64,000 nucleotides of DNA from positions 192,001 to 256,000 of the forward strand of contig CAVVXN010000003.1 of assembly GCA_963752285.1 (NCBI GenBank), given 5' to 3'. Positions 2,914 through 59,529 of the stretch are shown in pieces. Source of the DNA: an uncultured Planctomycetota bacterium. Its GTDB lineage: Bacteria; Planctomycetota; PLA2; JAEUHO01. Numbering within the stretch: position 1 is the stretch's first letter; each line of letters begins with the position of its first letter. The notes beneath the pieces were generated by a model. The model did not search any database, was not told the DNA's origin, and saw nothing but the letters and a program-made list of their open reading frames with translations. A program made the position numbers and the translations under genes.

Positions 2914-3031
2914 CGCCCCACCCGTATCGGCGGGCCTCGCTCCGGCCCTCAAGGCCCGTCGGGCGGGGGGCGTCGAGCCCGGCGGCCGGCTACCCTCGCA
3001 CCACGTCGGGGCCGGGACAGGAGCGCGTGCG

Positions 3032-36179: not shown

Positions 36180-38714
<2,535 letters not shown>

Positions 38715-39958: not shown

Positions 39959-40074
39959 CGGACCTCCGCGGGGGCGGAACGGTTCCATACCCGCCGGGCG
40001 GGGGAGGGGGGAGTCCTTTCGCCGGCCCGTCCGCGGCGCGCGCCGGCACGGCGGGCCCGCGTACCATGCCGTCG

Positions 40075-40546: not shown

Positions 40547-40669
40547 AGCGACGGGGGAGGCGGACGTCCCGTCCTGTCCCGTTCCCGCGCGGCGGGCCGT
40601 TCCCGGAGGCCGGGGTAGGGTTCGCCCCGGCGGCGCCCCGAGAGCCCGGGCCGCCCTCGGAGCCTCGCC

Positions 40670-41158
40670 ATGTCCGCCGACGACCCCGTGCGTGAGAGCC
40701 TCCTCCACCTCCTCTCCGGCGGCGGCGCGCACCGGCCGATGGAGGCCGCCCTCGCCGGATGGCCCGAGGCGCTCCGCGGCGTCCGGCCCGACGGACAGCC
40801 CCACACGCCGTGGCGTCTCCTCGAGCACGTCCGCATCGCGCAATCCGACATCCTGGAGTTCTGCCGCGACCCGGGCCACGTCTCGCCCGCCTGGCCCGAG
40901 GGCTACTGGCCGGCGGGAGACGCGCCGCCCGACGCCGCGGCGTGGGACCGGTCCGTCGCCGCGTTCCTCCAGGACCTTGCGGCCATGAAGGCGCTCGTGC
41001 GGGACCCCGGGAACGACCTCCTGGCCTCCCTGCCCCACACGGACGGAGCGAGCCTGGTGCGGGAGGCGCTCCTGGTCGCGGACCACAACGCGTACCACCA
41101 GGGGCAGATCATGCTCCTCAGGCGCCTGCTGGGGCTGGCCCCGCACGCCGGGCCCTGA
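40670..41158 (+). CDS. DinB family protein
   Basis: HTPWRLLEHVRIAQSDI, DHNAYHQGQI. Confidence 0.88.
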   Translation: MSADDPVRESLLHLLSGGGAHRPMEAALAGWPEALRGVRPDGQPHTPWRLLEHVRIAQSDILEFCRDPGHVSPAWPEGYWPAGDAPPDAAAWDRSVAAFLQDLAAMKALVRDPGNDLLASLPHTDGASLVREALLVADHNAYHQGQIMLLRRLLGLAPHAGP

Positions 41159-41211
41159 GGCCGGCGAACCCGGACCGGGGCGCGGGCGGCGGCGCGAAGG
41201 ACAAAGCCCGG

Positions 41212-42622
41212 TCAGCGACCGCCGCGGCGCGGCGCGGGCCACCACCTCGCGGAGGCCTTTGTCGCCCATGCCCGGTCCTTGCCCTCGTGGCAGAGGAGGC
41301 ACGCGTTCGGCGTCTTCGCGTCGTCCGGGTTCCGCCGCGGGTCGGGGCTCCAGTACGTGTGCGAGCGGAGTCGCTGCGTGCCCGCGTGGTTCACGATGCG
41401 CGGCATGTGGCACTCGACGCACCGGGCCCCGGCGTTCTTCGCCGGGTCCGACGCCGTGGTGGGTGTGCGCCGCGAGGGCAGGCGCGGCGCGGTACGCCCG
41501 GTGGCACGCGAGGCAGAGCGCGTTGTTCTCGATCGGGAGCTTCAGCGCTGCCGCGCGGTGCGGCTCGTGGCACGTGGTGCAGGTGGGGGACTTCTCGCGT
41601 CCCCTCGCGAGCATGTCGGATTCGCGGTAGTCGGTGAGCTGCTGGTGGTGGTTCGCCGAGGACCCGTCCGGCCAGAACTCCTTCGCGTCGTGCTCGGGCG
41701 TCACCTGGACGTAGTGGGCGTCGAGGACCGTTCCCGGGGTCATGTTGTAGGGGTACGCCAGCCGCCCCGGCAGCCCGGCCGGCGCGCCCTGCTCGGGTCC
41801 CGCCGTCCCCCGGGAGTGGCACTTGCCGCACGCGTCGAGCTGACGGTCGTGGGGAAACGCGCTCGGGGAGAGGATGTTGCCCTTGCCCCCGCCCGCCTTC
41901 ACGTGTTCGAGCCCGGGCCCGTGGCACGCCTCGCAGCCGATCGCCAGCTCCTTCCACCGCGTGTGCCACGTGTGGTCGCTCGCGTCGTAGCCGAGGTCGA
42001 GCCCCGTCGTGTGGCATCCGGCGCACTGGAGCTGCCAGGCCCACTTCTCCGCCGTCCAGAACCCGTCCGTGCCGGGTTCGCCCGACGCGAGTCCCAGCCA
42101 CTCCACGTACTCGTGGTCCTTCCGGTTCCACTGCACGGGCAGCACGCGATACGAACCGTCCGGCAGCTTCGTGAGGTAGCGCTGCTTGTAGCGATTCCCG
42201 ACCGTGCGTTCGATCGCGTACCGGTGCGGCTTCCCGTCGTCGCCCGGCGCCTCGATCACGTAGTGGTCGCCCTCGCGGATCATCTCCATCCGACGACCCT
42301 GGCCGACCTCCAGCACGACGCCGTCCGTCGAGAAGTCGCCGATCACCGAGTGCGGGGTCGCCGCCTGCTCCATGTACGAGTGGAGCGAGGTCTTCCAATC
42401 GGCGTAGGCCTGCGCGTGGCAGGACGCGCACGCGTCGGATCCGACGTAGCCGGGCACGACGTCGTCCAACACCTCGGCGACGCGGCCCGGCGCCTTCGCA
42501 ACCGGTGCGGGGGAGGCCGGGGCGTCCGCGCGCGCGAGCGTCCAGGCGGCGAAGAGAACGGCCACCAGGGCGACGAGGGCCAGGCCCTCTGCGCGACGGG
42601 CGGTCCCGTTCCGGTCCGGCAT
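41212..42622 (-). CDS. Octaheme c-type cytochrome, frameshift near 41455
   Basis: Signal peptide; CASCH, CAGCH, CEACH, CGKCH, CTTCH, CLACH, then in shifted frame CVECH, CLLCH. Confidence 0.9.
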
Positions 42623-43354
42623 GCGCAGGCTCCGTCGTGGTGCGCGCGCTCGACGCGTCACCCCCGGAGTACACGGTCGCAATCCGGATGCCGCGCGCCG
42701 GACCCCGCGAGCCTGCCGAGGCCCGCTTGCGCGAGACGCCCATCGACCGGAGCCCCGCGCCTCGACGCGCCACACGTCGGCCGCCCTCGAGCCACCACGA
42801 TCCCGGATCGCGGCGCCGCGTTGCTACGGATTCGCAACGGGCCGGCCGGGGCGTTGGCGCGCGCGGCGGTGGGAGGGAACGCTTGCGGACGGCCCGGGAC
42901 TACGGCCCGGAGAAGACGGATACCGTCTTACCATCGACGACGCGACAACCAGGTTGCCGGACGAGCCCGAACCGAGCGCCCGGCGGGCCCCGCGGCGGGC
43001 CGGCGTCCTGACCCCCATCGCGTCCCGGGTGACGGCCGGCCCGTCGTTCCGCCGACCGGCGCGAAGGCCACGGAGCTTCATTTCCAGCCCTTCTAGGGCT
43101 GTGAGCCACCCCGGTCCGGGTCCCCGGAGCCGGACGGGGACCGGCCGGACGCGCCGGCATCGCAACCCGTCGCTCCGGGGCGGCCGGAGGCGGTTCTTCC
43201 CCGGAACGTGCACGCGTGCTCCGCCGCTTCTCCATACGCTCCGCTTATCGCCCCCATGTCCAACTCGATCGTGTGCTACCGACCGGCGCGTGGCCACAAT
43301 GCTGCGCGAAAGAGGCGGGTTGTCCGAGGGCGGTCTGCCCGAACCGGAGAGGCC

Positions 43355-46300
43355 ATGTCCAGAGCGCGATTCCCTTTCTACGTCCTCGTGGGTGCCCTGT
43401 TGGCTGCGCTGCCGGCGTGCGGTGGCAGCGGTCAAGGGCTGCGTTCACCCGACAACCCCGTGCGCGTGATGAGCACGTCCATCCCGCCGGCCCTGTCGGG
43501 CCAGAAGGTGGATTTCCCCATCGACCTGAACGGCGGGTGTGGCGGCCCCTACGTGATCAAGCTGATCCAGGGGAAGCTTCCGCCGGGCGTCGTGTTCGAC
43601 AACGCGACGCACAGCATGAACGGCACGCTCCTGATGGACGGGACGTACTCGTTCACGTTGCAGATCGACGACACGGGTTGTAACCCGTTCTCGTCCACGC
43701 AGGCGAAGTTCACGTGGAACGTCGGGGTCGGGGACGTGGTCGTCGTCGACGTCCTGCAGGACGGCAACAGCGCGCTCCTCCCCGCGGGCGCCGAGGCGTT
43801 CAACCCGGACTACCCCGCGCTCCCGACGACCGTCTACAACCAGAATACCTCCCTCCAGTTCGTGGTCGCCGGCGGCGTCGGCCCGTACAAGATGAAGCTG
43901 TACGACGACCCCGCGCTCCAGGACGGGAACCTCCCGCTCGGCGTCGTGGTGGCCTCGGGCTCCCCGAATCTCGTCGGGTCGCCCGTAGAGGTGGGCCCCG
44001 GTGGCGGCGCGTTCCTGCTCTCGTTCGAACTGACGGACGCGGTGGGGACGAAGGGGTACTTCCACGCGTACTGGAAGATCGACACCCCGCCGATCACGAT
44101 CGCGACGACCAGCCTCGGGAACGGCGTCTGTGGCCAGACGTACAGCGAGACGTTCTTCCTCGTGGACGGCGTTCCGCCCTTCACGCACGACCTCGTGGAG
44201 CAGGGGCTCCCGCTCGGCTACACGTCCGACCAGAACCCGAATCCGCAGGATCCCGGCGCGGACGTCCTCTACAACCAGGCCGGGCCGCCGACGGTCAACC
44301 CGTCACAGGCGCTGAACAAGATCGACGCCTACGTCTATCCCACGCCCAGCGCGATCGGCCCGAACTACGCCGTCTCGAACCAGGGCGCCCCGCCCGAGGG
44401 CATCTACATGGTCGAGGACACGGGAGCCCTGACCGGGATCCCGCGCCGGCGCGGCACGTTCTCGATCAACTACCACGTCCAGTCCTCGCTGGTCCCGAAC
44501 TCGTTCGGGCAGCACGCGTGGCGAACCTACACCTTCCAGATCAGCCCGTCGGGCTCGCTGGCGCAGGACCCGTCATACACGGTGGACGGCGTGTTCCGTC
44601 CGATCGCGCCGTACAGCCGGATCGGGGACTTCGAGCTCGGCCAGGTCTACAACCCGGACGGCGGCGTCGCGGGCCTGCAGCTCAAGGCCACCGGCGGCTG
44701 CCCGCAGGACGGCAAGTCCGACCACCCGCACCTCTCGCAGGTGGTCGCGGACCCGGCGGTCGGCGAGGTGCTCGGCGCGTACACGTGGGCGGTCGACTGG
44801 GACCCGCTGTCCCTGGGCACGCCGCCGATCCCGCACGTCGAGCTGCTTCCGTCCGGCGTGTTCCGCGTGGTGCCCGGTGAGCAGAGCCAGCTCGCCACGC
44901 AGGCCTTCCAGACGTTGACGTTCACGGTGAACGACTACGCGTTGCCGACCTCGTTCGCGAGCACGAACTCACAGTACGTACGCACCTCGGTCGGACCGGA
45001 TGTCCTCGTCATCACCGAGTCCACGACCTCGTTCGCCTTCGGCAACACCACCTCGTCGATCACCACCGGGTTCAACGACCCGAACATGAAGGTGAAGGTG
45101 ATGCTCCCGTACAGCTCGGGGGCGGTCGTCCGTTCGCTCGACGACGCAAAGGACATGGCGGGAACGGGCGCGAGCCAGCACACGATCCCGAGCACGGCGG
45201 GCAGCGGCAAGACGCTGAAGGACCTGCTGGAGGGCGTGGACCTCCTGCGCACCTCGGTGAACGCGACCGGATGGTGGGACGACACCTGGTCCCTCAACCC
45301 GAAGGCGGGCATCGCGGCCGCCCACGGCGACATGAACCAGGGGTACGGCTACTACGGTCTCACGTACTCCTACGAGTACTGGTCCACCACCAGCTCGTAC
45401 ACGTACAGCTACGGGGCGAACCCCGAGAGCACGTGCGTGCAGATCCCGGTGTGCACGACGCCGGGCGTGACCGAGGACCGGGACGCCGGCGTCTACACGA
45501 GCGGCGGGAAGCTCTACCTCTTCGACTCGAGCAGCTACATCGGCGCGTTCATCGTGCGTCCGGAGTCGAAGGTCTACGTGCCGATCGCGTTCAACAAGTC
45601 CTCGACGGGCTACTACTCGTTCGGGGACGTCTGGGTGAACGCGTACTCGAACACGCAGACCGTCATGTCGATCTGGAAGGTCCCGCAGATCACGATCAGC
45701 CCCGACGGGCGCTTCGCGGCGCTCAAGCTCGGCACGAGCACGACGCAGAACCTCTCCCAGGGAGGGGAGCTGGCGTCGAGCAGCCGGCTCGTGATCTTCT
45801 CGCTCACGGGCGAGCGGATCGCGGCGTGGGGCAACAAGACCTGGATCGTGGTCCAGTCGGGGGCCAACGGCGGCTACTCCCACACCTCGAGCACGGGGGA
45901 GCGGTTGATCGCGGCGAGCCTCGCGCTCTCCAACGACAACCTCTACTACGTGTGCGGCTGCAACGACTTCACCTCGTCCGAGTGGTACTCGTGGCGCTAC
46001 GAGTGGGTGTACCGCTACGGGATCCAGAGCGGCGGAAGCTCGGGGGCCCTCCTGGCCTGCGGTGACTCGGAGTGGACCAACACGAATGGGAACCCCCTCC
46101 AGCTGCCGATGCAGCGCTACTACGAGGCGGGGTACGGCTACAACTACGGCACGTACGGGTACAACTACTGCGACTCCACGATCTACTACGGCGGATACGC
46201 GGGCCAGGAGTGGGGCAACCCGCCGATGCCGTTCCGCATGAGCGCGGACGGCCATACCGTCGCGATCGTCGCGGGCCGTTCCACCACGTCGAGCGCCGAC

Positions 46301-47929
46301 TCGACGACCATGTACATGAGCCACGTGTGGGTAGACGACGCCACGGGCGTCCACCGGCTCTCGTCGCGGGTGCGGCACCAGCCGTGGGGCGGCGGGCGCG
46401 GGTCCGCCCTCTCCGGCGGCTCGCTCAGCAGCTACACGTACCAGTGGGGCATGCAGTGCGGCCCGAGCACGCAGCTCGAGGTCGCGGACGACGGCTCGAG
46501 GGTGGCCGTGGTGGTCAACCGCTACAGCGGCACGGTCTACTACTCCAGCTCGTACGCCTACGAGCTCGGGTACGACCGCCAGGACGTGATCGCCTTCGAG
46601 CCCGCGGTGAGCGGGACCTGGGCGGGCGGCGCGGTCGAGCGGCAGGTCACGGGCTCGGAGTCCGCGACGACCCCGATCTTCTCGACCAACCTCAACTGGA
46701 AGTTCGGCGCGCTCGTCTTCACGAAGGACGGCAACGGCCTGGTCTTCTGGGGCGGGGCCGCGGCGTACTACCCGAACAACTTCAACACCTCCTCGTACCA
46801 GCCCTACGTGGGCGCGCCGGGCCTCACGGGCAGCCTGTACCTGTACAGCTTCCCGAACAGCACGGTGACGCACATCCTGGACTACGACGAGGGCGGGAAC
46901 TCGGACGACATCGGGAAGGTGTACCCGACGCAGTCCACCCAGGTGAACCCGTCGTTCACGGACTACTCGTTCCCGGGCGCCCGGAACATCGGGACGGTGA
47001 AGCCGCTCGGCGGGTTCATGTCGCCGAACCGGAACTTCTACTACATCTCTACGGCCCACGCGCTGAGCTCGACGCTGCAGGACGCCACGCAGCTGATCGG
47101 GATCAACGTGCGGAGCCTCGACTCGACGCAGGCGATCAACGGGCACTCGGACGGCCGCGCATTCGCGCTCGGCGGCACGAGCTGGCCCACGCACCGGAGC
47201 TGGATCCCGACCTACGGGTACAGCTCTTCCTACTGCTACTGCGGGTACTACGGGATCTTCTACCAGTACATCGCGCCCGGATGCGAGTACGGCACGATGC
47301 GCGTGATGACCCGCGGCGGCAAGGTGTTCTACGGCTCGCACTACCAGATCTTCGGGCCGACACCGACATACTCCTCGTACACGTACGCCGGACCGATCGA
47401 GACGACGTACCACGGCTGCGACGCGGCCTTCGCGGGACAGGTGGGGTACTTCGACGCGAACGTCGGCGGCACGCCGGTGATGCTCACCACGCTGCCCGAG
47501 ACGATCATCATGAACAACTACTCGTCCACCACCTACCGGACGATGAAGTACCTGGAGGTCTCGAGCGACGAGACGGCAGTGGCGTTCGTCTACGCGCCGT
47601 TCGCGTCCACGAGCTACAGCTACCCGGTCAACTGCGCAGCCGAGCGAGTCGGCTGGATCGGGAACCTCATCACGAACGCCACGACGGGCGCCGTGGTCAG
47701 CAAGTCGGTGGTGGCCGACCTGCAGGGCGCAGCCGGGCGCATCTCGTCGTCGATCGCGCACGACTCCACCGGGACGAGCGTGTTCTACGGCGACGCGGTC
47801 TCGGGGGCCGACGAGAAGGACAAGTACATCTACCAGACGGCCGTCAGCTCGGCGGGCGCCGGGACGCCGAAGAAGTACTCGTTCTCCGGTGACCCGAAGC
47901 GCTACAACATCCTGAACGCCGGCCGCTGA
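43355..47929 (+). CDS. Giant lipoprotein copy A (1524 aa): about 4 putative Ig domains plus Tyr/Ser-rich beta-propeller-like region
   Basis: LPAC lipobox; GKLPPGV..GTYSFTLQIDD-type Ig repeats; recurring SPDG/SADG/ADDG/TKDG blade motifs; GGAGAGG RBS. Confidence 0.85.
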   Translation: MSRARFPFYVLVGALLAALPACGGSGQGLRSPDNPVRVMSTSIPPALSGQKVDFPIDLNGGCGGPYVIKLIQGKLPPGVVFDNATHSMNGTLLMDGTYSFTLQIDDTGCNPFSSTQAKFTWNVGVGDVVVVDVLQDGNSALLPAGAEAFNPDYPALPTTVYNQNTSLQFVVAGGVGPYKMKLYDDPALQDGNLPLGVVVASGSPNLVGSPVEVGPGGGAFLLSFELTDAVGTKGYFHAYWKIDTPPITIATTSLGNGVCGQTYSETFFLVDGVPPFTHDLVEQGLPLGYTSDQNPNPQDPGADVLYNQAGPPTVNPSQALNKIDAYVYPTPSAIGPNYAVSNQGAPPEGIYMVEDTGALTGIPRRRGTFSINYHVQSSLVPNSFGQHAWRTYTFQISPSGSLAQDPSYTVDGVFRPIAPYSRIGDFELGQVYNPDGGVAGLQLKATGGCPQDGKSDHPHLSQVVADPAVGEVLGAYTWAVDWDPLSLGTPPIPHVELLPSGVFRVVPGEQSQLATQAFQTLTFTVNDYALPTSFASTNSQYVRTSVGPDVLVITESTTSFAFGNTTSSITTGFNDPNMKVKVMLPYSSGAVVRSLDDAKDMAGTGASQHTIPSTAGSGKTLKDLLEGVDLLRTSVNATGWWDDTWSLNPKAGIAAAHGDMNQGYGYYGLTYSYEYWSTTSSYTYSYGANPESTCVQIPVCTTPGVTEDRDAGVYTSGGKLYLFDSSSYIGAFIVRPESKVYVPIAFNKSSTGYYSFGDVWVNAYSNTQTVMSIWKVPQITISPDGRFAALKLGTSTTQNLSQGGELASSSRLVIFSLTGERIAAWGNKTWIVVQSGANGGYSHTSSTGERLIAASLALSNDNLYYVCGCNDFTSSEWYSWRYEWVYRYGIQSGGSSGALLACGDSEWTNTNGNPLQLPMQRYYEAGYGYNYGTYGYNYCDSTIYYGGYAGQEWGNPPMPFRMSADGHTVAIVAGRSTTSSADSTTMYMSHVWVDDATGVHRLSSRVRHQPWGGGRGSALSGGSLSSYTYQWGMQCGPSTQLEVADDGSRVAVVVNRYSGTVYYSSSYAYELGYDRQDVIAFEPAVSGTWAGGAVERQVTGSESATTPIFSTNLNWKFGALVFTKDGNGLVFWGGAAAYYPNNFNTSSYQPYVGAPGLTGSLYLYSFPNSTVTHILDYDEGGNSDDIGKVYPTQSTQVNPSFTDYSFPGARNIGTVKPLGGFMSPNRNFYYISTAHALSSTLQDATQLIGINVRSLDSTQAINGHSDGRAFALGGTSWPTHRSWIPTYGYSSSYCYCGYYGIFYQYIAPGCEYGTMRVMTRGGKVFYGSHYQIFGPTPTYSSYTYAGPIETTYHGCDAAFAGQVGYFDANVGGTPVMLTTLPETIIMNNYSSTTYRTMKYLEVSSDETAVAFVYAPFASTSYSYPVNCAAERVGWIGNLITNATTGAVVSKSVVADLQGAAGRISSSIAHDSTGTSVFYGDAVSGADEKDKYIYQTAVSSAGAGTPKKYSFSGDPKRYNILNAGR

Positions 47930-48143: not shown

Positions 48144-48243
48144 GCCATCGTCTTTCGGTGTCCGGCGGGGATGGGATTTCGTAGAATACGCGCCGAAAGA
48201 GGCGGTTCTTCTCTTGGGCAGCATTCCCCGGATCGGAGAGGCC

Positions 48244-51200
48244 ATGTCGAGAGCGCGAATCCACGCGTACATCCTGATCGGCGTGCTGCTGGCAGTGCTC
48301 CCTGCCTGCGGCGGCGGACAGGGACTCCGGATGCCGAGCGACGCCGTGCGCGTCACGAGCACGTCGATCCCGGCGGCGCTCTCCGGACAGCCGCTGGCGT
48401 TCGAGATCCCGCTCGAAGGGGGCTGCGGCGGTCCCTACGTCTTCCATCAGCTGAGTGGGAGGCTGCCCAAGGGCGTGGCCCTCGACAGCGCCACGCACAG
48501 CATCCGCGGGACGCCGCTCGAGGACGGGACCTTCACCGTCAAGATCCAGATCGACGACACGGGCTGCAACCCGTTCTCTTCCACGTCCGCCACGTTCAGG
48601 ATCGACGTGGGTGTGGGGGACGTGGTCGTCTGCGACGTGCTCCGCGACGGCAACTCGGCGCTGATCCCCGTCGGGGGTACGAGCTTCAACCCGGACTACC
48701 CCGCGCTCCCGACGACCGTCTACAACGAGTCCACCTCCCTCCAGCTCGTGGTCGCCGGTGGCGTGGGCCCGTACAAGATGAAGCTCTACGACGATCCCGC
48801 GCTCCCGGACGGGAACCTCCCGCTCGGCGTCGTGGTGGCGTCGGGCTCGCCGAACCTCGTCGGGTCGCCGGCCGAGGTGGGGCCGGGCGGCGGGCCGTTC
48901 CTCCTCTCGTTCGAGCTGACGGACGCCGTCGGGACGAAGGGGTACTTCCACACGTACTGGAAGATCGACACCCCGCCGATCACGATCGCGACGGCCACCA
49001 TCGGGAACGGCGTCTGCGGCCAGACGTACAGCGAGACGTTCTTCCTCGTGGACGGCGTGCCGCCCTTCACGCACAACCTCGTGGAGCAGGGGCTCCCGGT
49101 CGGCTACACGTCCGACCAGAATCCGAACCCGCAGGACCCAGGCGCGGACGTCCTCTACAACCCGGCCGGGCCGCCGACGGTCAACCCGCCGCAGGCGCTG
49201 AACAAGATCGACGCCTACGTCTATCCCACGCCCGACGCCGCCGGTCCGAACTACGACGTCTCGAACCAGGGCGCCCCGCCCGAGGGCATCTACATGGTCG
49301 AGGACACGGGAGCCCTGACCGGGATCCCGCGCCGGCGCGGCACGTTCTCGATCAACTACCACGTCCACTCCTCGCTGGTCCCGAACTCGTTCGGGCAGCA
49401 CGCGTGGCACACGTACACCTTCACGATCAGCCCGTCGGGCTCGATGGCGCAGGACCCGTCGTACACGGTGGACGGCGTGTTCCGTCCGACCGCGCCGTAC
49501 AGCCGGATCGGCGACTTCGAGCTCGGCCAGGTGTACAACCCGGACGGCGGCGTCGCGGGCCTGCAGCTCAAGGCCACCGGCGGCTGCCCGCAGGACGGTA
49601 AGTCCGACCACCCGCACCTCTCGCAGGTGGTCGCGGACCCGGCGGTCGGCGAGGTGCTCGGCGCGTACACGTGGGCGGTAGACTGGGACCCGCTGTCCCT
49701 GGGCACGCCGCCGATCCCGCACGTCGAGCTGCTCCCGTCCGGCGTGTTCCGCGTGGTGCCCGGTGAGCAGAGCCAGCTCGCCACCCAGGGCTTCCAGACG
49801 TTGTCGTTCACGGTGAACGACTACGCGTTGCCGACGTCACTCGCGAGCACGAGCACCCAGCGGGTCCGTACGTCCGTCGGTCCCGACGTGTTGATCATCA
49901 CCGAGTCCACGACCTCGTTCACGGGGGCGAACACGACGTCGTCGGACACCAGCCGGCTGAACGACCCGAACATGAAGGTGAAGGTGATGCTCCCGTACAG
50001 CTCGGGGGCAGTCGTCCGTTCGCTGGACGACGCGAAGGACATGGCGGGAACGGGCGCGAGCCAGCACACGATCCCGAGCACGGCGGGCAGCGGTAAGACG
50101 CTGAAGGACCTGCTGGAGGGCGTGGACCTCCTGCGCACCTCCGTGAACGCGACGGGATGGTGGGACGACACGTGGTCCCTGAACCCCAAGGGCGGTCAGG
50201 CGGCCGCGCACGGCGACGCCAACCAGGGGTACGGCTACTACGGCCTCACCTACGCCTACGAGTACTGGTCCACCACCAGCACCTACTCATACAGCTACGG
50301 GGCGAGCCCCGAGACCACCTGCGTGCAGATCCCGGTGTGCACGACGCCGGGCGTGACCGAGGACCGGGACGCCGGCGTCTACACGAGCGGCGGGAAGCTC
50401 TACCTCTTCGACTCGAGCAGCTACATCGGCGCGTTCATCGTGCGTCCGGAGTCGAAGGTCTACGTGCCGATCGCGTTCAACAAGTCCTCGACGGGCTACT
50501 ACTCGTTCGGGGACGTCTGGGTGAACGCGTACTCGAGCACCCAGACGACGATGTCGGCCTGGAAGATCCCGCAGATGACGATCAGCCCCGACGGGCGCTT
50601 CGCGGCGCTCAAGCTCGGCACGAGCACGACGCAGAACCTCTCCCAGGGAGGGGAGCTGGCGTCGAGCAGCCGGCTCGTGATCTTCTCGCTCACGGGCGAG
50701 CGGATCCCGGCCTGGGGCAACAAGACCTGGATCGTGGTCCAGTCGGGGGCCAACGGCGGCTACTCCCACACCTCGAGCACGGGGGAGCGGTTGATCGCGG
50801 CGAGCCTCGCGCTCTCCAACGACAACCTCTACTACGTGTGCGGCTGCAACGACTTCACCTCGTCCGAGTGGTACTCGTGGCGCTACGAGTGGGTGTACCG
50901 CTACGGGATCCAGAGCGGCGGAAGCTCGGGGGCCCTCCTGGCCTGCGGCGACTCGCAGTGGACCAACACGTCCGGGAGCCCCATGCAGCTCCCGATGCAG
51001 CGCTACTACCAGGCGGGGTACGGCTACAACTACGGCACGTACGGGTACAACTACTCCGACTCCACGGTCTACTACGGCGGATACGCCGGGGTCGAGACGG
51101 GCAGCCAGCCGATGCCGTTCCGCATGAGCGCGGACGGCCACACGGTCGCGATCGTCGCGGGTCCGTCCACGTCGTCGAGCGGCGACTCTACGACGATGTA

Positions 51201-52818
51201 CATGAGTCACGTGTGGGTCGATGACGCCACGGGGGTCCACCGGCTCTCGTCGAGGACACGGCACATGCCGTGGGGTGGGGCCCGGGGCTCGACCCTCTCG
51301 AGCGGGTCGCTCAGCAGCTACACGTACCAGTGGGGCGTGCAGTGCGGACCGAGCACGCAGCTCGAGATCTCCGACGACGGCTCGAGGGTGGCCGCGGTGG
51401 TCAACCGCTACAGCGGAACCGTCTACTACTACACCTCGTACGCCTACGAGCTCGGCTACGACCGGCAGGACGTGATCGCCTTCGAGCCCGCGGTGAGCGG
51501 GACCTGGGCGGGCGGCGCGGTCGAGCGGCAGGTCACGGGCTCGGAGTCCGCGACGACCCCGATCTTCTCGACCAACCTCAACTGGAGGTTCGGCGCGCTC
51601 GTCTTCTCGAAGGACGGCGCCGGCCTGTTCTTCTGGGGAGGCGCTGCGAGCTACTACCCCAACAACTTCAACACGAGCTCCTATCAGCCCTACACCGGAG
51701 CCGTGGGCCTGGCGGGCAGCCTGTACGTGTACAGCTTCTCGGCTGGCACGGTGACCCACATCCTGGACTACGACGAGGGCGGGAACTCGGACGACATCGG
51801 GAAGGTGTACCCGACGCAGTCCACCCAGGTGAACCCCTCGTTCACGGACTACTCGTTCCCGGGCGCCCGGAACATCGGGACGGTGAAGCCGATCGGCGGG
51901 TTCATGTCGCCGAACCGGAACTTCTACTACATCTCGACCGCCCAGGGGTTGAGCGCGTCGCTGTCGGACTCCACGCAGCTCGTGGCCATCAACGTCCGCA
52001 GCATCGACGCCACGCAGACGATCAACGGCCACTCGGACGGTCGGGCGTTCGCGCTCGGCGGCACGAGCTGGCCCACGCACCGGAGCTGGGTCCCGACCTA
52101 CGGGTCCAGCTCGTCGTACATGTACGTCGCGTACTACGGCATCTACTACCAGTACCTCGCGCCCGGTGGACTGTTCGGAACGATGCGGGTCATGACCCCG
52201 GGGGGCAAGGTCTTCTACGGGTCGCACTACATGATCTTCGGGCCGTCCACCGGGGCCTCCGCGAGCTACTCGTACGGCGGTCCGATCGAGTCGACGTACC
52301 ACGGCTGCGACGCGGCGTTCGCGGGACAGGTGGGGTACTTCGACGCGAACGTCGGCGGCACGCCGGTGATGCTCACCTCGCTGCCCGAGACGATCATCAT
52401 GAACAACTACTCGTCCACCACCTACCGGACGATGAAGTACCTCGAGGTCTCGAGCGACGAGACGGCGGTGGCGTTCGTCTACGCGCCGTTCGCGTCCACG
52501 AGCTACAGCTACCCGGTCAACTGCGCCGCCGAGCGAGTCGGCTGGGTCGGGAACCTCATCACGAACGCCACGACGGGCGCCGTGGTCAGCAAGTCGGTGG
52601 TGGCCGACCTGCAGGGCGCCGCCGGACGCATCTCGTCGTCGATCCAGCACGACTCCACCGGGACGAGCGTGTTCTACGGGGACGCGGTCTCGGGGACCGA
52701 CGAGAAGGACAAGTACATCTACCAGACGGCCGTCAGCTCGGCGGGCGCCGGGACGCCGAAGAAGTACTCGTTCTCCGGTGACCCGAAGCGCTACAACATC
52801 CTGAACGCCGGCCGCTGA
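48244..52818 (+). CDS. Giant lipoprotein copy B (1524 aa), tandem paralog of copy A
   Basis: Same architecture, LPAC lipobox, identical C-terminus (GDPKRYNILNAGR). Confidence 0.85.
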   Translation: MSRARIHAYILIGVLLAVLPACGGGQGLRMPSDAVRVTSTSIPAALSGQPLAFEIPLEGGCGGPYVFHQLSGRLPKGVALDSATHSIRGTPLEDGTFTVKIQIDDTGCNPFSSTSATFRIDVGVGDVVVCDVLRDGNSALIPVGGTSFNPDYPALPTTVYNESTSLQLVVAGGVGPYKMKLYDDPALPDGNLPLGVVVASGSPNLVGSPAEVGPGGGPFLLSFELTDAVGTKGYFHTYWKIDTPPITIATATIGNGVCGQTYSETFFLVDGVPPFTHNLVEQGLPVGYTSDQNPNPQDPGADVLYNPAGPPTVNPPQALNKIDAYVYPTPDAAGPNYDVSNQGAPPEGIYMVEDTGALTGIPRRRGTFSINYHVHSSLVPNSFGQHAWHTYTFTISPSGSMAQDPSYTVDGVFRPTAPYSRIGDFELGQVYNPDGGVAGLQLKATGGCPQDGKSDHPHLSQVVADPAVGEVLGAYTWAVDWDPLSLGTPPIPHVELLPSGVFRVVPGEQSQLATQGFQTLSFTVNDYALPTSLASTSTQRVRTSVGPDVLIITESTTSFTGANTTSSDTSRLNDPNMKVKVMLPYSSGAVVRSLDDAKDMAGTGASQHTIPSTAGSGKTLKDLLEGVDLLRTSVNATGWWDDTWSLNPKGGQAAAHGDANQGYGYYGLTYAYEYWSTTSTYSYSYGASPETTCVQIPVCTTPGVTEDRDAGVYTSGGKLYLFDSSSYIGAFIVRPESKVYVPIAFNKSSTGYYSFGDVWVNAYSSTQTTMSAWKIPQMTISPDGRFAALKLGTSTTQNLSQGGELASSSRLVIFSLTGERIPAWGNKTWIVVQSGANGGYSHTSSTGERLIAASLALSNDNLYYVCGCNDFTSSEWYSWRYEWVYRYGIQSGGSSGALLACGDSQWTNTSGSPMQLPMQRYYQAGYGYNYGTYGYNYSDSTVYYGGYAGVETGSQPMPFRMSADGHTVAIVAGPSTSSSGDSTTMYMSHVWVDDATGVHRLSSRTRHMPWGGARGSTLSSGSLSSYTYQWGVQCGPSTQLEISDDGSRVAAVVNRYSGTVYYYTSYAYELGYDRQDVIAFEPAVSGTWAGGAVERQVTGSESATTPIFSTNLNWRFGALVFSKDGAGLFFWGGAASYYPNNFNTSSYQPYTGAVGLAGSLYVYSFSAGTVTHILDYDEGGNSDDIGKVYPTQSTQVNPSFTDYSFPGARNIGTVKPIGGFMSPNRNFYYISTAQGLSASLSDSTQLVAINVRSIDATQTINGHSDGRAFALGGTSWPTHRSWVPTYGSSSSYMYVAYYGIYYQYLAPGGLFGTMRVMTPGGKVFYGSHYMIFGPSTGASASYSYGGPIESTYHGCDAAFAGQVGYFDANVGGTPVMLTSLPETIIMNNYSSTTYRTMKYLEVSSDETAVAFVYAPFASTSYSYPVNCAAERVGWVGNLITNATTGAVVSKSVVADLQGAAGRISSSIQHDSTGTSVFYGDAVSGTDEKDKYIYQTAVSSAGAGTPKKYSFSGDPKRYNILNAGR

Positions 52819-52840
52819 CGCGGTCGGTCGGGGACCCTCG

Positions 52841-52876
52841 CGCCGCCCGCGGGCTTCGGCCCGCGGACGGCGTCTT
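52841..52876 (+). terminator. Degenerate copy of the terminator hairpin
   Basis: Same hairpin with one stem mismatch (G>A) and TCTT in place of TTTTT. Confidence 0.6.
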
Positions 52877-52991
52877 GGCCGGCGCCGACGGGACATTCGG
52901 CCCCCCGAGGCGCCCGGGTGCCGTTGCCCGTCGTCGCCGCACCCGATAGAGTCCCCCCCGGCCCGACCTGCCGGGCCCGGAGGAGACTCGA

Positions 52992-53510
52992 ATGAGACGT
53001 ACGACGACCCTTCTGTCGGCGCTGCTGCTCGTCGGCGGCTGCCTCGCCCTCGGTCGGTCCGAGGACGCCGACGCGTTGCCGGCGGTGGCCCGCGCGCGGC
53101 CCCACGCCCTGTTCCAGGTGGCGATCGACGGCGTCGCCGTCGGCGGCTTCAAGAGCGTGGACGGCCTCTCGGCCGAGGTGGAGACCGTGGAGTACCGGGA
53201 CGGGGGCGACAACCTCGTTCGCAAGCTGCCCGGCCGCCTCGCGTTCGGGAGCGTCACGCTCGTGCGCGACCTGACCAAGGACACCACGTTCTTCGACTGG
53301 ATCCACGAGGCCGCGTCGACGAGCGGCCCCGACCGCAAGGACGTGACGGTCACCGTGTACGACCCGAAGAGCGGGGACACCGTCCGGACCTTCAACCTCG
53401 TGGACTGCTTCCCCACGCACCTGGCCGTCAAAGCCCTCGACGCGAAGGGCGGGGGCGAGGTCGCGATCGAGGAGATCGTCCTGGCGGTCGAGAACGTGAG
53501 TCTCGACTGA
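52992..53510 (+). CDS. T4 gp19-like phage tail-tube protein with N-terminal signal peptide
   Basis: FQVAIDG..GGFKSVDGLSAEVETVEYRDGG..RKLPGR..VTLVR..FFDW..RKDVTV..CFPT..VAIEEIVLAVE; AGGAG RBS; MRRTTTLLSALLLVGGCLALG leader. Confidence 0.9.
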   Translation: MRRTTTLLSALLLVGGCLALGRSEDADALPAVARARPHALFQVAIDGVAVGGFKSVDGLSAEVETVEYRDGGDNLVRKLPGRLAFGSVTLVRDLTKDTTFFDWIHEAASTSGPDRKDVTVTVYDPKSGDTVRTFNLVDCFPTHLAVKALDAKGGGEVAIEEIVLAVENVSLD

Positions 53511-53794
53511 GAGCCTATGGAGGAATCGAGTCCGGGGCCTCGGCCGGATGCGGCGCCGCGATGCGGCGTTGCTCGTCGTCAGCGACCCACGGCGGGGTCG
53601 CCTCCGGCTCGCACCATGCCTTGCGCCCCCGCGCTCGGCCCCGGGGCCCCGGCCCACGCATTCACACGCGGAGCGGCGCGGCGGCGGGCGCTGCGTGCGT
53701 GCCGCCCTGGAAGCGGCACGCACGACCCCCCCGACGGGCGTAGGAAAGGCCCGGGCCCGGTGCGGCGGTGTGCCGGCGCGCCGGAGGACGTGCC

Positions 53795-54814
53795 ATGCAG
53801 ATCGGCATGATCGGCCTCGGCCGGATGGGTGCGGACATGACCCGCCGCCTCCTCGCCGGTGGTCACGAGTGCGTCGTCTTCGACCTCGATGAGGGCCGCG
53901 TGCGCGCGCTCGAACGAGCGGGCGCCACCGGCGCCAGCTCCGTCGAAGCGCTCGTCGGTCGGCTCGCCCGCCCGCGCACGGTGTGGCTGATGGTGCCCGC
54001 GGGCGCCGTGGACCGCGCGTTGGCCGATCTGGCGCCTCGGCTCGAAGCCGACGACGTCGTGGTGGACGGAGGCAACACGAACCCGCAGGACGACCGACGC
54101 CGTGCGGCGCGGCTCGAGGAGCGCGGGATCCATCACGTGGACTGCGGGACGAGCGGCGGAGTCTGGGGCCGGGAAGGTGGCTACTGCCTGATGGTCGGGG
54201 GCGACGACGCGATCGTCTCCCGGCTGGACCCTCTGTTCCGGACGCTCGCGCCGGGACGGGACGCGGCGCCGCCCACCGCCGCTCGCGCCGCCCGGTCCGG
54301 GACGGCCGAGGACGGGTATCTCCACTGCGGCCCGCACGGCGCGGGGCACTTCGTCAAGATGGTGCACAACGGCATCGAGTACGGCGTGATGGCCGCGTAC
54401 GCCGAGGGGCTCGCGCTCCTCGGGCACGCGGCCGCGGGCCTCGAGACCCGGGAGACCGACGCGGAGACGACGCCGCTTCGGGACCCCGGCGCCTACGCCT
54501 ACCGCTTCGAGCTGGCCGACGTGGCCGAGGTGTGGCGACGGGGCAGCGTGATCCGGTCGTGGCTGCTCGACCTCGCCGCGAGCGCCCTCGCGAGGGACCC
54601 TGGCCTCGAGGCCTTCGCGGGGCGCGTCTCGGACTCCGGGGAGGGGCGCTGGGCCCTCCAGGCCGCGATCGACGTCGGGGCGCCCGCGCCGGTGCTCGCG
54701 ACCGCGCTCTTCGCCCGCTTCGCCTCGCGCGGCGAGGCGGACTACGCCGGTCGGCTCCTCTCGGCGATGCGCCACGAGTTCGGAGGGCACCAGGAGAAGG
54801 GGCCGGGACGATGA
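53795..54814 (+). CDS. gnd: 6-phosphogluconate dehydrogenase (decarboxylating, short type)
   Basis: GLGRMG, DGGN, DCGTSGG, KMVHNGIEYG, SDSGEGRW, MRHEFGGH. Confidence 0.95.
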   Translation: MQIGMIGLGRMGADMTRRLLAGGHECVVFDLDEGRVRALERAGATGASSVEALVGRLARPRTVWLMVPAGAVDRALADLAPRLEADDVVVDGGNTNPQDDRRRAARLEERGIHHVDCGTSGGVWGREGGYCLMVGGDDAIVSRLDPLFRTLAPGRDAAPPTAARAARSGTAEDGYLHCGPHGAGHFVKMVHNGIEYGVMAAYAEGLALLGHAAAGLETRETDAETTPLRDPGAYAYRFELADVAEVWRRGSVIRSWLLDLAASALARDPGLEAFAGRVSDSGEGRWALQAAIDVGAPAPVLATALFARFASRGEADYAGRLLSAMRHEFGGHQEKGPGR

Positions 54815-56178
54815 CGCGCCCGCGCTCCGACGCCCTGGTCTTCTTCGGCGCCACGGGCGATCTCGCGAAGAAGAAGGTGTTCCCGGCGCTCTACGCGCTC
54901 GCCCGCCGTCGCCGCCTCGACGTGCCGGTGATCGGCGTCGCCCGGAGCGCCGGGAGCGTCGACGACCTCGTAGAGCGCGCGCGAGAGGCGGCGGAACGCG
55001 GCGGCGCGCTCGACGAGGTGGCTTTCGGCCGGCTTGCCAAGCGCCTCCGCTACGTCCAGGGCGACTACGGCGACGACGCGACGTTCGACGCGCTCCGGCG
55101 CGAGCTCGGCTCGGCCGCGCGACCGCTGCACTACCTGGCCATCCCGCCGGGCGCGTTCGCCACCGTCGTCCGGGGACTGGCGCGCTCGGGCTGCGCGAAG
55201 GGCGCGCGCATCGTGGTCGAGAAGCCGTTCGGACGCGACCTGGCCTCCGCGAAGGCCCTGAATCGGACCCTCCGCGAGGTGTTCGACGAGAGCGCGGTGT
55301 TCCGGATCGACCACTACCTCGGGAAGGAACCGGTGCTCAACCTGCTCGTATTCCGGTTCTCGAACACCTTCCTCGAGCCCATCTGGAACCGGAACTACGT
55401 GCGGAGCGTCGAGGTCACGATGGCCGAGTCGTTCGGCGTCGAGGGCCGCGGCGCGTTCTACGAGGAGGCCGGCGCCATTCGGGACGTGGTCCAGAACCAC
55501 CTCCTGCAGGTCGTGGGGTTCCTCGCGATGGAGCCGCCGCTGGCGACCTACGACGAGGCGATCCGCGACGAGCAGGTGAAGGTGTTCCGCGCGATCCGTC
55601 CCCTCGCGCCGAAGGACCTGGTCCGGGGACAGTTTCGGGGCTACCGCGACGAGGCCGGCGTCGCGCCGGACTCGACGGTCGAGACCTACGCGGCCGTGCG
55701 GCTCTGCGTGGACTCCTGGCGATGGGACGGCGTGCCCTTCTTCGTGCGGGCCGGGAAACGCCTCCCGGTCACGGCCACGGAGGTCTTGGTCACGCTCAAG
55801 CGACCGCCGCACCGCGCCGTGTCGAGGAGCGAGTCGAACCACCTTCGCTTCCGCCTCGGACCGGACGTCGCCATCGCCCTGGGCGCGCGCACGAAGCGGC
55901 CGGGCGACGAGCTGCTCTCGGATCCGACGGAGCTCCGGGTCGTGAGCCGGCCGGAGGGCGACGAGATGGACGCCTACGAGCGTCTCCTCTCGGACGCGAT
56001 GGACGGCGACGGGACGCTCTTCGCGCGCCAGGACGAGGTGGAGCAGGCGTGGGCGATCGTCGATCCGGTCCTCGGCGGGGTCACCGAGGTCCTGCCGTAC
56101 GAGCCCGGGTCGTGGGGGCCCGAGGCCGCGGCGCGCCTGCCCGAGAGCGTCGGCGGCTGGCACGACCCCGAGCCGTGA
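54811..56178 (+). CDS. zwf: Glucose-6-phosphate dehydrogenase
   Basis: GATGDLA, EKPFG, RIDHYLGKE, RDVVQNH, RWDGVPF. Confidence 0.96.
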   Translation: MTRPRSDALVFFGATGDLAKKKVFPALYALARRRRLDVPVIGVARSAGSVDDLVERAREAAERGGALDEVAFGRLAKRLRYVQGDYGDDATFDALRRELGSAARPLHYLAIPPGAFATVVRGLARSGCAKGARIVVEKPFGRDLASAKALNRTLREVFDESAVFRIDHYLGKEPVLNLLVFRFSNTFLEPIWNRNYVRSVEVTMAESFGVEGRGAFYEEAGAIRDVVQNHLLQVVGFLAMEPPLATYDEAIRDEQVKVFRAIRPLAPKDLVRGQFRGYRDEAGVAPDSTVETYAAVRLCVDSWRWDGVPFFVRAGKRLPVTATEVLVTLKRPPHRAVSRSESNHLRFRLGPDVAIALGARTKRPGDELLSDPTELRVVSRPEGDEMDAYERLLSDAMDGDGTLFARQDEVEQAWAIVDPVLGGVTEVLPYEPGSWGPEAAARLPESVGGWHDPEP

Positions 56179-56943
56179 CGCCCGACACGCCCGCGTCGCG
56201 CGTCGTGGGGCCGGGGCGCGCCGAGGTCCGGGTTTGCGTCGATCCCGAGGCGCTCGCGCGCGAGGCGGCGCGGCGCGTCGTCTGCGCGCTGGCGCTCCGG
56301 GAGGCGGGGGGCGAGCGGTTCACCGTCGCGCTCTCGGGCGGCTCGACGCCCTCGGCGACCCTCCGGCGTCTCGCCGCGGCGCGGGCTCCCGGCGCCTGGA
56401 GCTCCCTCGATGTGTTCTTCACGGACGAGCGCTGCGTCGAGCCCCGCGACCCCGACAGCAACTACCGCCTCGCCGACGAGACGTTCCTTCGCCCCGCGCG
56501 CGTGCCGGCGGAGCACGTCCACCGCATCCACGGCGAGGAGCCCCCGGACGTCGCAGCCGCGCGCTACGAGGACGAGCTTCGGCGCACGTTCGGTCCCGGT
56601 GTCCCGCGTCTGGACCTCGTGCTCCTCGGGCTCGGGTCGAACGCGCACACCGCCTCGCTCTTCCCCGGTGACCGCGCGGTCCGGGAGGCGCGGCGGAACG
56701 CCCTCGCCGTGCAGCGTCCCCGCGACGCCGCCCTGGCGCGTGACGCTGACCCCGCCGGTCCTGAACGCCGCGCGCGAGGTGCTCTTCCTCGTCACGGGCG
56801 CGGCGAAGGCGGAGGCGCTCCGCGCCGTGCTCGAAGGACCGCGCGACCCGGACCGCTGGCCGGCGCAGGTGGTCGTCGCCGAGGGCGGTCGCGTGACGTG
56901 GCTCGTGGACCGCGCCGCCGCGAGCGGGCTCACGGCGGGGTGA
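56175..56943 (+). CDS. pgl: 6-phosphogluconolactonase, frameshift near 56712
   Basis: [29 protein letters not shown], then shifted frame [25 protein letters not shown]. Confidence 0.9.
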
Positions 56944-57947: not shown

Positions 57948-58994
57948 TCAGGAGAGGCTCGCGCGGACGAACGCGGCGCGCCGGGCCTCTCGCTCCTCGC
58001 CGTCGAGGGTCCGGCCCTCCATCTTCTGGAGGTGCGCCGGCTGGGTCAGGACGAGGAGCTCGTTCACGCGGTGCAGGTCCACGTCCTCGAGGAGGCCCAT
58101 CACCACGCCCAGGCGCACGCTCGAGAGGTGGCTCATCACCTCGTCGCTCGTGAGCATGCGGGCGGCGCGGAGCGTCGCGAGGCTCCGGTGGACCTTGTCC
58201 TCCAGTCGGCGCCGGCCGCGGCTGGCGAGCTCCTGCCGGCACAGGTCCTCGTACTCGAGGATGCGCGGCAGCATGTTCCGGAGGCCGAGGAGGATCTCCT
58301 CCTCCGTCCGGCCGAGCGTGACCTGGTTCGAGATCTGGTACAGGTCGCCCAACGCCATCGTGCCCTCGCCGTAGAACCCGCGGACGGTGAGGCCCGTTCG
58401 CGAGCAGGCGTGGAAGACCTTCTCGACCTGCTTCATGTGGACGAGCGCCGGCAGGTGCAGCATCACGCTCGCGCGCAGGCCCGTCCCGACGTTCGTCGGG
58501 CACGCGGTCAGGTATCCGTGCTCGGTCGTCGCCGCGTACTCGACCACGTTCTCGAGCGTCCGATCGACGTCCACGGCCGTGTGCCACGCGTCCTCGAGCG
58601 AGAGCGACGAACGGATCGCCTGGATGCGCAGGTGGTCCTCTTCGTTGACCATCACGCTCACGACCTCGTCGGACCCGAACGCGACGCCGCGCGGTCCCTT
58701 GCCCGACTCCAGCTCGCGGCTGATCAGGTGGCGCTCGAGCAGGAACTTCGCGTCGAGTCGTTCGGCGACCTCGAGGTCCACGTAGTGCTGGCGGGCGCCG
58801 AGGGCGAGCGCGCTCAGGTGCTCGTGCATCCGTTCGAGGATCTCGCGCTTCTGATCTTCGCCCGCGCGCGTGGCGAAGGGGTACCCCGCGAGGTTGCGGG
58901 CCAGGCGTACGCGAGACGAGATCACGGTCTCGGCGCGCGGTCCCTCGCCCCGCAGCCACTCTCCGCATCGGCGATCGAGGTCAACGAGTTCCAC
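57948..58994 (-). CDS. mcsB: Protein arginine kinase
   Basis: SSRVRLARN, NEEDHLR, GYLTACPTNVGTGLRAS, RGFYGEG, QISNQ. Confidence 0.95.
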   Translation of the reverse strand: MELVDLDRRCGEWLRGEGPRAETVISSRVRLARNLAGYPFATRAGEDQKREILERMHEHLSALALGARQHYVDLEVAERLDAKFLLERHLISRELESGKGPRGVAFGSDEVVSVMVNEEDHLRIQAIRSSLSLEDAWHTAVDVDRTLENVVEYAATTEHGYLTACPTNVGTGLRASVMLHLPALVHMKQVEKVFHACSRTGLTVRGFYGEGTMALGDLYQISNQVTLGRTEEEILLGLRNMLPRILEYEDLCRQELASRGRRRLEDKVHRSLATLRAARMLTSDEVMSHLSSVRLGVVMGLLEDVDLHRVNELLVLTQPAHLQKMEGRTLDGEEREARRAAFVRASLS

Positions 58995-59529
58995 CGCTCG
59001 GCTCGTCTCCGTGGGCCGGGCCGGACGCCGCGGCCTGCGGGCCCTGCTCCAGCTCGCGGATGGCGTCGCGGATGCGCGCCGCGTCTTCATAGCTCTCGGT
59101 GCGAACCGCGTCCTGCAGCTCACGCCGGAGCGCGAGCAGTCGATCGGCCCACTCCGTCTCCACGGTGACGCGCCCGCGCGGGAGCCTCCCGGTGTGGCGA
59201 TGCGCCCCGTGGATCTTGTCGAGGAGGGGGTTCAGCCGCTCCGCGAAGACTTCGTAGTCTCGCGGGCAGCCGAACCTCCCCTTGGTGCGGAACTCCTCGA
59301 ACGCGATGCCGCAGTGCGGACAGCGGAGCGTGGAACCCCCGCCCGCCTGCCGGATGGCACTCGACATCAGGTTGGCGAGGCCGGAGGGCACGGGCGCGCC
59401 GCTCGCGATTCCCTGCTCGTTCGCGCAGGCCTCGCAGATGTGCAGCGTCCGCTTCTTGTCGCTCTTGATCTCGGTGAAGTGGATGGTCGCCGGATACTTC
59501 CCGCAGCACTGGCACAGCGTCGGGCTCAT
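58981..59529 (-). CDS. mcsA: McsA (CxxC motifs plus UvrB/UvrC motif)
   Basis: CQCC, CEAC, CPHC, GRFGCPRDY, AVRTESYEDAARIRD. Confidence 0.92.
   Translation of the reverse strand: MSPTLCQCCGKYPATIHFTEIKSDKKRTLHICEACANEQGIASGAPVPSGLANLMSSAIRQAGGGSTLRCPHCGIAFEEFRTKGRFGCPRDYEVFAERLNPLLDKIHGAHRHTGRLPRGRVTVETEWADRLLALRRELQDAVRTESYEDAARIRDAIRELEQGPQAAASGPAHGDEPSGGTR

Follow-up and report, generated by a model that had tools for sequence, protein, structure and literature searches.

A stand-alone tail-tube protein with a predicted Sec-type signal and its leader-bearing relatives

P0001 is a 172-residue protein encoded in the 64-kb stretch of DNA analysed here (hereafter the window, in whose coordinates all positions are given unless a locus is named). 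The evidence set out below is best explained, with a probability of about 0.7, if P0001 is a stand-alone tube subunit of the Cis1 type to which a Sec-type signal has been added and which acts outside the cytoplasm. The gene would be monocistronic and translated from the ATG at 52992, and its product would be a full-length subunit of the Cis1/Pvc1/Afp1 type with the T4 gp19 fold and a Sec-type signal peptide at its N-terminus. The residues MRR and the 18-residue uncharged stretch that follows would steer the unfolded chain through SecYEG, with the N-terminus in and the domain out; signal peptidase I would then cut after A-D-A28, most likely, or after A-L-G21 to leave a mature protein of ~144 aa, the domain of which would fold in the periplasm or at the cell surface. 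There it may act in the absence of a sheath, a baseplate and a spike; the likeliest role is that of a structural module that associates with itself into hexameric rings or short stacks. Signal-bearing tubes of this kind would make up a large, phylogenetically scattered group that has arisen from ordinary injection-system tubes more than once.

To our knowledge, the tail tubes that have been studied (those of phage tails, tailocins, eCIS and the T6SS) all assemble on a baseplate within the cytoplasm. When a tube subunit is exported unfolded by Sec, it must fold and, if it polymerises, nucleate without an initiator, a tape measure or a sheath; if true, Sec-routed tube polymerisation would put the tube fold to a new use and have it assembled by a new route.

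The tube gene and its product

52992..53510, + strand: tube gene encoding the 172-aa precursor P0001 (PF06841, TIGR02241, codon-position G+C)
52979..52985, + strand: Shine-Dalgarno-like GGAGGAG, 6 nt ahead of the ATG at 52992, read directly
53109..53498, + strand: tube domain of the gp19/Cis1 type, residues 40-169 (PF06841, AlphaFold, Foldseek)
52840-52873, + strand: G+C-rich hairpin with a UUCG loop, just past the stop of the upstream giant gene

Because the G+C content of the window is ~74%, open reading frames were judged by their G+C content at the three codon positions. The reading frame of the tube gene starts at the ATG at 52992, which is the first start codon past an in-frame TAG at 52947, and its G+C content at codon positions 1/2/3 is 0.69/0.46/0.95. 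The leader codons (2-31) taken alone give 0.73/0.60/0.87, which is a coding periodicity, and the spacer upstream of the gene is flat by codon position (0.84/0.75/0.81). An earlier note on this DNA had claimed a strong AGGAG ribosome-binding site, and this was found as part of the GGAGGAG that ends 6 nt before the ATG; a GGAGG at -16 to -5 precedes just 13 of the 639 ATGs of the window. No Shine-Dalgarno-like sequence precedes either of the codons at which translation might begin further in, TTG 53076 and GTG 53085. A true start downstream of the leader, which would have undone the case for export, is therefore not borne out, given the ribosome-binding site at the ATG and the periodicity within the leader; the tube gene is real and its leader is translated. 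The earlier note had also proposed a candidate -10 element, TAGAGT (52947-52952). The hexamer is present but is given no weight, because a scan for sigma-70 promoters found no promoter-like site and the TAG of the hexamer is the in-frame stop. Indeed, the scan of 52500-54000 returned neither sigma-70 promoters nor intrinsic terminators, and hairpins in the two flanking spacers were found to fold no better than shuffled sequences (z of -1.28, -0.54 and +0.55). The hairpin at 52840-52873 could terminate the transcript of the giant gene, but its region is no more stable than shuffles (z of -1.28) and it does not satisfy the T-run rule. No match to Rfam was found within 52000-54500.

P0001 is a member of PF06841 and TIGR02241 by both score and fold. 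The full gp19/Afp1-type tube sequence that had been read from the letters was recovered by the profile searches: PF06841 (Phage_T4_gp19) is matched nearly end to end, over profile positions 4-133 of 134 (E 6.4e-32, 110.6 bits against a cut-off of 28.2), and TIGR02241 is matched with 97.2 bits against 62.4, so that both scores lie above the curated cut-offs. An AlphaFold model made from a 52-sequence alignment has a mean pLDDT of 83.4, with most of the domain above 90 and the leader at 55-61; per block of 10 residues the values are 88-97 from residue 41 onwards, except for 68 at residues 151-160. The model shows the tube fold, in which a beta-sandwich is accompanied by a long hairpin and a single helix; strands were placed at 61-69 and 76-85, and the helix at 99-109. 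The first matches returned by Foldseek were the tube chains of PVC, AFP, AlgoCIS, the Anabaena tCIS and the Streptomyces CIS, and 12 CIS tube chains were matched with E values of 1e-11 to 5e-9 and TM scores, normalised to the target, of 0.71-0.76.

A sequence search of the PDB gave Pvc1 as the best solved relative (8.9e-15) and reached the Cis5-type All3323 only at 1.4e-3, which places P0001, as judged from sequence, with the main-tube (Cis1-type) subunits. The NCBIfam equivalog models CIS1_fam and CIS5_fam do not discriminate here: P0001 scores below the cut-offs of both (44.4 against 220 and 83.6 against 260, respectively), and the tube of a bona fide eCIS locus (L004, described below) fails likewise, with 61.3 and 85.9. 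Identity as a tube adaptor, for which the higher CIS5 score might be taken, was dropped, as the bona fide tube scores alike and the PDB search puts Pvc1 first. When 157 leader-bearing proteins were compared with 119 leaderless ones, conservation per column was correlated at r = 0.79 and the median net indel was 0; there is thus no net deletion in the domain, and the long lumen-forming hairpin has been kept.

The leader and the proteins that share it

52992..53075, + strand: leader, residues 1-28, MRRTTTLLSALLLVGGCLALGRSEDADA, with n-region MRR, h-region T4-G21 and c-region RSEDADA
53040..53042, + strand: Cys17 of a loose lipobox, L-V-G-G-C (motif match)

The basic n-region, the h-region and the ADA and VGG-C motifs that had been reported for the leader are all present as described. 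In the leader, R2 and R3 precede an 18-residue uncharged run, with a charge of +3 on the N-terminal side and -2 on the C-terminal side. The consensus rules for signal peptides and lipoboxes were applied, and the rule-based checks found the features of a Sec signal for signal peptidase I (n-region, h-region, small residues at -3/-1 and an N-in charge distribution). There are two small-x-small sites, A-L-G21 (53054) and A-D-A28, the second of which aligns with the small-x-small sites of relatives; if the chain is cut after A28, 144 residues remain, as many as in a normal tube subunit with its N-terminal arm counted. For signal peptidase I, RSEDADA is a c-region with an unusual amount of charge. 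The lipobox consensus is L-[ASTVI]-[GAS]-C closing the h-region and leading into a polar linker; V-G-G-C17 fits a loose pattern of this kind, the Cys lying in the middle of the run and being followed by LALG. A signal-like stretch was defined by four conditions: K or R ahead of the core, a Kyte-Doolittle mean over 10 residues of at least 2.5, absence of acidic residues and 14 or more uncharged residues. The six frames of the window contain 2570 open stretches that begin at a start codon, and only 14 of these, the real signal peptides of the window included, fit the definition. Similar leaders are found on window proteins that are presumably exported, e.g. MSRRLRYAFLLLVLGLLVPAAARA, and the giant neighbours of the tube gene carry LPACGG lipoboxes. 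The Tat consensus is S/T-R-R-x-F-L-K; a Tat signal was rejected, since M-R-R-T-T-T-L-L has the R-R pair followed by residues that misfit and since the n-regions of most relatives are K-rich. Of the earlier claim of export, the signal-like character of the leader stands and the nearest relatives keep it, with the localisation itself resting on comparison; export of P0001 by Sec is considered probable, with A28 or G21 as the most likely cleavage site under the rules.

A search with the single sequence of P0001 gave 45 non-self matches at 31-42% identity, 44 of them without a leader and one (P0006, 179 aa) with. With P0006 as the query 17 proteins were found, 11 of which are 168-180 aa long and have hydrophobic leaders. 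A profile of 12 leader-bearing members was then used to search 1.84 billion representatives, giving 12,713 matches at E <= 1e-3 and 394 at E <= 1e-30. With a leader counted as an N-terminal extension of at least 14 aa together with a hydrophobic N-terminus, the best 150 of the 12,713 comprise 90 proteins with a leader, 38 without an extension and 22 others. Among the 90, 72 are single-domain proteins of up to 200 aa, in which the extension has a median of 26 aa (interquartile range 24-29), and 18 are longer. A K or R is found in the n-region of 84 of the 90 leaders, and the N-terminal side is more positively charged than the C-terminal side in 82, so that the domain is predicted to lie outside. 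A second profile was built from the nearest sub-clade of P0001; when 8000 candidates were scored with it there were 2892 matches at E <= 1e-10, and among the 120 matches listed (90%-identity clusters) 85 carry a leader, and the first 60 do so without exception. Both profiles held leader columns and hence favour leader-bearing matches in their ranking; for this reason the counts are taken to mean that the group is large and are not turned into a share of the family.

The nearest clusters in the ESM Atlas have lengths of 169 aa (commonest phylum Chloroflexota) and 175 aa (Acidobacteriota), NCBI names place some leader-bearing relatives in Terriglobia and Candidatus Limnocylindria, and some lie on contigs of up to 730 kb. 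No leader-bearing copy was found in a plasmid collection (91 matching records, none covering at least 80% of the query) or in a phage collection (2 matching records at E <= 1e-5, neither covering the leader). Full-text literature searches, judged from their result lists, returned no description of tube proteins with Sec signals. These comparisons place P0001 in a group of tube proteins with predicted signals that is large and widespread and has so far gone undescribed. The earlier note's statement that Sec signals are absent from tube proteins is right for the systems that have been studied; it does not hold across the family, in which at least 90 clusters (at 50% identity) have leaders. Where the source databases name the leader-bearing relatives, they do so as ‘phage tail protein’ or ‘phage tail-like protein’, and, because of these names and the size of the group, genome surveys that count PF06841 as a marker of prophages or injection systems may miscount leader-bearing tubes.

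Trees were built from the tube domain only, and with 141 columns their deep forks are weak. In a FastTree tree of 166 rows, among which the best identity to P0001 is 46% (P0125), the five rows nearest to P0001 all carry leaders, and the leader label changes 13 times against 55 when shuffled. In a quick IQ-TREE analysis of 76 rows, P0001 was found within a set of 21 rows with 98% support, as sister to P0125 and P0254 (support 89) and on a long branch (1.13). The possibility that homologs would lack the leader was not borne out, as the nearest relatives keep it: 20 of these 21 rows have one, the exception being P0267. It appears from this placement that P0001 inherited its leader within a leader-bearing clade. 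The label changes five times on the IQ-TREE tree, well-supported branches forcing at least three of these changes, and a leader-bearing clade (P0052, P0061, P0064 and P0065) is nested among leaderless proteins of the MPNRR type found in Myxococcota eCIS loci; leaders were thus gained or lost several times.

Two other fates of the leader were weighed against cleavage by signal peptidase I. The first, which is improbable, is that the leader escapes cleavage and, as a signal anchor, makes P0001 a single-pass membrane protein (N-in) whose tube domain is fixed to the cytoplasmic membrane on its outer face. The uncharged run of P0001 (18 residues) and those of its relatives (median 19, with at least 20 in 41 of 90) have the length of a membrane helix, and the charged RSEDADA makes a poor peptidase site; on the other side, a small-x-small motif follows the hydrophobic run in 90 of 90 leaders, although this is a weak test, and many relatives have classic A-x-A endings, e.g. 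VQA, SVSA and TQA. The second, to which we give somewhat less credence still, is that signal peptidase II cuts before Cys17 (L-V-G-G-C), so that the tube domain would be held at the membrane by a lipid anchor. Besides the motif in P0001 itself, lipobox-like motifs are found in 11 of the 90 leader-bearing representatives, some of them clear (LLTGGCGVGG, LTSACGPG), the window encodes Lnt, and LPACGG is present in the two giant genes upstream. This reading of Cys17 is made less likely by its position inside the hydrophobic run, with the hydrophobic LALG after it where a flexible polar linker would be expected, and P0001 is the sole bearer of the motif among the 85 leader-bearing sub-clade proteins listed.

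Genomic surroundings

43208-47929 and 48214-52818, + strand: giant lipoprotein genes in tandem, upstream of the tube gene
53768-54814, ~54811-56178 and 56410-56943, + strand: pentose-phosphate cluster gnd-zwf-pgl, downstream of the tube gene
38951-42775, - strand: multihaem cytochrome c (residues ~246-428) and class I Trp/Tyr-tRNA synthetase (942-1223)
57948-59123, - strand: ATP:guanido phosphotransferase of the McsB-like protein arginine kinase type
36180-38117, - strand: ClpB/ClpC-like double AAA+ protein with a UVR motif
2276-4762, + strand: Lnt (apolipoprotein N-acyltransferase), with its domains from residue 311 of 828 aa
7915-10554: PSCyt2/PSD1 protein

The absence of sheath, baseplate, spike and capsid genes from the window had been pointed out earlier, and Pfam scans of 44 ORFs across the 64 kb agree, as no contractile-injection or phage family was found in them. 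A search of the six-frame translation with the tube HMM matched only 52992-53510, so that the window has no second tube gene. The two giant genes upstream, separated from the tube gene by a spacer of 173 nt, encode proteins of 1573 and 1534 aa that are 88% identical. Both have the LPACGG lipobox near the N-terminus and a high content of S, T, G and Y. A He_PIG Ig domain in one of them is the only family match, and NCBIfam gave none. The G+C content of this stretch is 0.67-0.68, against ~0.74 in the rest of the window, and the giant genes have the look of a recent duplication of surface lipoprotein genes. Neither the tube protein nor its two giant neighbours was matched by PADLOC, and a role of the tube protein in a defence system was dropped on this ground. 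The downstream cluster encodes 6-phosphogluconate dehydrogenase, glucose-6-phosphate dehydrogenase and 6-phosphogluconolactonase, which have no evident functional connection with the tube gene. With regard to the more distant genes, the ORF at 38951-42775 is probably two genes joined by the longest-ORF rule in G+C-rich DNA, and that of Lnt either has been called too long or encodes a long N-terminal extension. The PSCyt2/PSD1 protein points, as a loose placing, to Planctomycetota or a related group.

Scanning genome contigs with one peptide pattern gave 61 loci, mostly from Myxococcota, of which 3 are leader-bearing and 58 leaderless; the genome of the window is not among them, although P0001 fits the pattern. 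The leader-bearing loci come from Dehalococcoidia (L016), a MAG labelled as an archaeon with 44% G+C (L039) and Chloroflexota (L056); their leaders begin at ATG, ahead of which stands AGGAGGTG in L039 and GGGAG in L016. The proposed survey of the neighbourhoods of signal-bearing homologs was carried out on these three loci, and it found no injection-system neighbours and no conserved partner gene common to the three in the 40 ORFs scanned, which are unrelated housekeeping genes. As a control, the eCIS locus L004 was seen to hold Pvc16_N, two sheath genes, two tube genes, a CIS_tube-LysM gene and a GPD-like hub gene. A sheath homolog is present in 38 of the 58 leaderless loci (25 of 36 when only loci flanked by 5 kb or more on each side are counted) and in none of the three leader-bearing ones; with the window counted, the comparison is 0/4 against 38/58 (Fisher p = 0.019). 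In L039 the leader-bearing tube gene (1653-2165, + strand) has a perfect AGGAGGTG ribosome site and lies on a contig of an ‘uncultured archaeon’ MAG, where it adjoins genes for a HicA toxin, a thrombospondin-type-3-repeat protein and a PD40 beta-propeller protein; the archaeon label or the binning may be wrong.

Leaderless tubes can be orphans as well. In four of four Myxococcota loci examined (L008, L012, L024 and L048) the gene, at ~10000 in the locus, encodes a leaderless orphan tube of 143-144 aa, and all 39 scanned non-tube ORFs around these genes are housekeeping genes; the orphan tube of L048 and the eCIS locus L004 are found in the same MAG. The description of P0001 as an orphan tube is hence right in that the window has no injection gene, and it goes too far if orphanhood is thought special to leader-bearing tubes, so that orphan status alone is no argument for a new role. 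That the start has been mis-called, with GTG 53085 (V32) opening a 141-aa cytoplasmic subunit that would serve as a spare paralog for an injection system elsewhere in the genome, is very improbable: a start at V32 would give the canonical length and N-terminal arm, leaderless orphan paralogs do exist in Myxococcota genomes with an eCIS (L048 and L004), and the DNA covered here is 64 kb of a 508-kb contig, but GGAGGAG stands before the ATG with nothing like it before GTG 53085 or TTG 53076, the leader has coding periodicity and is of a signal-like kind that is rare by chance (the 14 in 2570 above), and the nearest relatives in the trees carry leaders.

Known tube systems, fusions and possible assembly

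When compared with the tubes of known injection systems (Pvc1, Afp1, Alg1 of AlgoCIS, All3324 of Anabaena and the Streptomyces CIS tube), P0001 belongs to the same Pfam/TIGRFAM family and has the same fold (TM 0.73-0.76, normalised to the target), at 25-30% identity. It shares with the Cis1-type tubes the conservation pattern and the long hairpin, and would have their length (~144 aa) after the predicted cleavage. Cis1-type tubes have no signal peptide, assemble in the cytoplasm and are encoded beside sheath, baseplate and spike genes, as in L004, whereas P0001 has a Sec-type leader and no injection-system neighbours within 64 kb; it thus departs from an injection-system tube in two features, the linked machinery (within 64 kb) and the absence of an export signal. 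The tubes of T4 (gp19), myophages and tailocins are of the same superfamily and fold (5w5f_A, E 6.5e-6, TM 0.59; pyocin 5w5e_A), and P0001 matches phrog_4542, a tail tube protein family; phage tubes are nevertheless much more distant from P0001 than injection-system tubes are, and there are no phage genes nearby. Hcp of the T6SS has a distantly related tube fold (Hcp1, 6bdc, E 1.5e-5), and Hcp is found outside cells because it is fired by the T6SS, having no Sec signal itself. Membership of P0001 in the Hcp family was dropped, there being no Hcp Pfam match. The leaderless orphan paralogs of Myxococcota (143 aa, with an MPNRR start) resemble P0001 in standing alone among housekeeping genes and differ from it in having no leader; they are presumably cytoplasmic, and their genomes can hold a full eCIS (L004/L048).

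Tube domains also occur in larger proteins, 24 of which (the long relatives) were scanned with Pfam. Two or three tube domains are present in 12 of the 24, Kazal domains in three (P0134, P0140 and P0150), DUF5667 in two and CIS_tube (PF19266) in three, and many long multi-domain relatives start with a signal peptide or a lipobox. Kazal domains are disulfide-rich extracellular modules, and their fusion to tube domains therefore supports an outside location of the latter; taken together, the fusion partners support a placing of tube domains outside the cytoplasm, as far as domain composition can suggest it. The AlphaFold model of a tandem relative, P0063, has a pTM of 0.73, and each of its halves matches CIS tubes in the PDB; compared with tandem tail-tube chains (T5, P74-26), the model gives TM scores of 0.27-0.30 and an rmsd of ~25 A, with no superposition.

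In granular sludge, a gp19-domain protein has been reported as the most abundant protein of one cluster of extracellular proteins, in passages that make no statement on a signal peptide (PMC12019908). The ‘signal peptide’ of another article is a cargo-loading tag of an eCIS and not a Sec signal (PMC12210884).

What such proteins would build outside the cytoplasm can be put forward with less assurance than their export. Assembly of P0001 into rings or a tube outside the cell is given somewhat less than an even chance; self-association is suggested by the correlation of conservation with leaderless tubes (r = 0.79), by the retention of the hairpin and by the recurrence of tandem tube repeats behind signals. 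A wider and more doubtful proposal is that tubes have repeatedly been captured by the Sec pathway and now form widespread rings, short tubes or fibres outside the cytoplasm, without sheath or baseplate, that would be a new kind of structure in the envelope or matrix. It is equally tentative that the captured tubes would serve as single proteins, as tandem repeats or as modules of giant surface proteins, and that such capture would extend over Planctomycetota-like bacteria, Chloroflexota, Acidobacteriota and others.

Some of the larger signal-bearing proteins have tube domains as modules, for example together with Kazal domains and DUF5667 or fused to PF19266. P0162 is among the relatives in which the tube domain is a module of a larger protein, P0092 has three tube domains and DUF922, and P0074, which is 1943 aa long, carries DUF4214, CIS_tube and an Ig-like ASH domain alongside its two tube domains.
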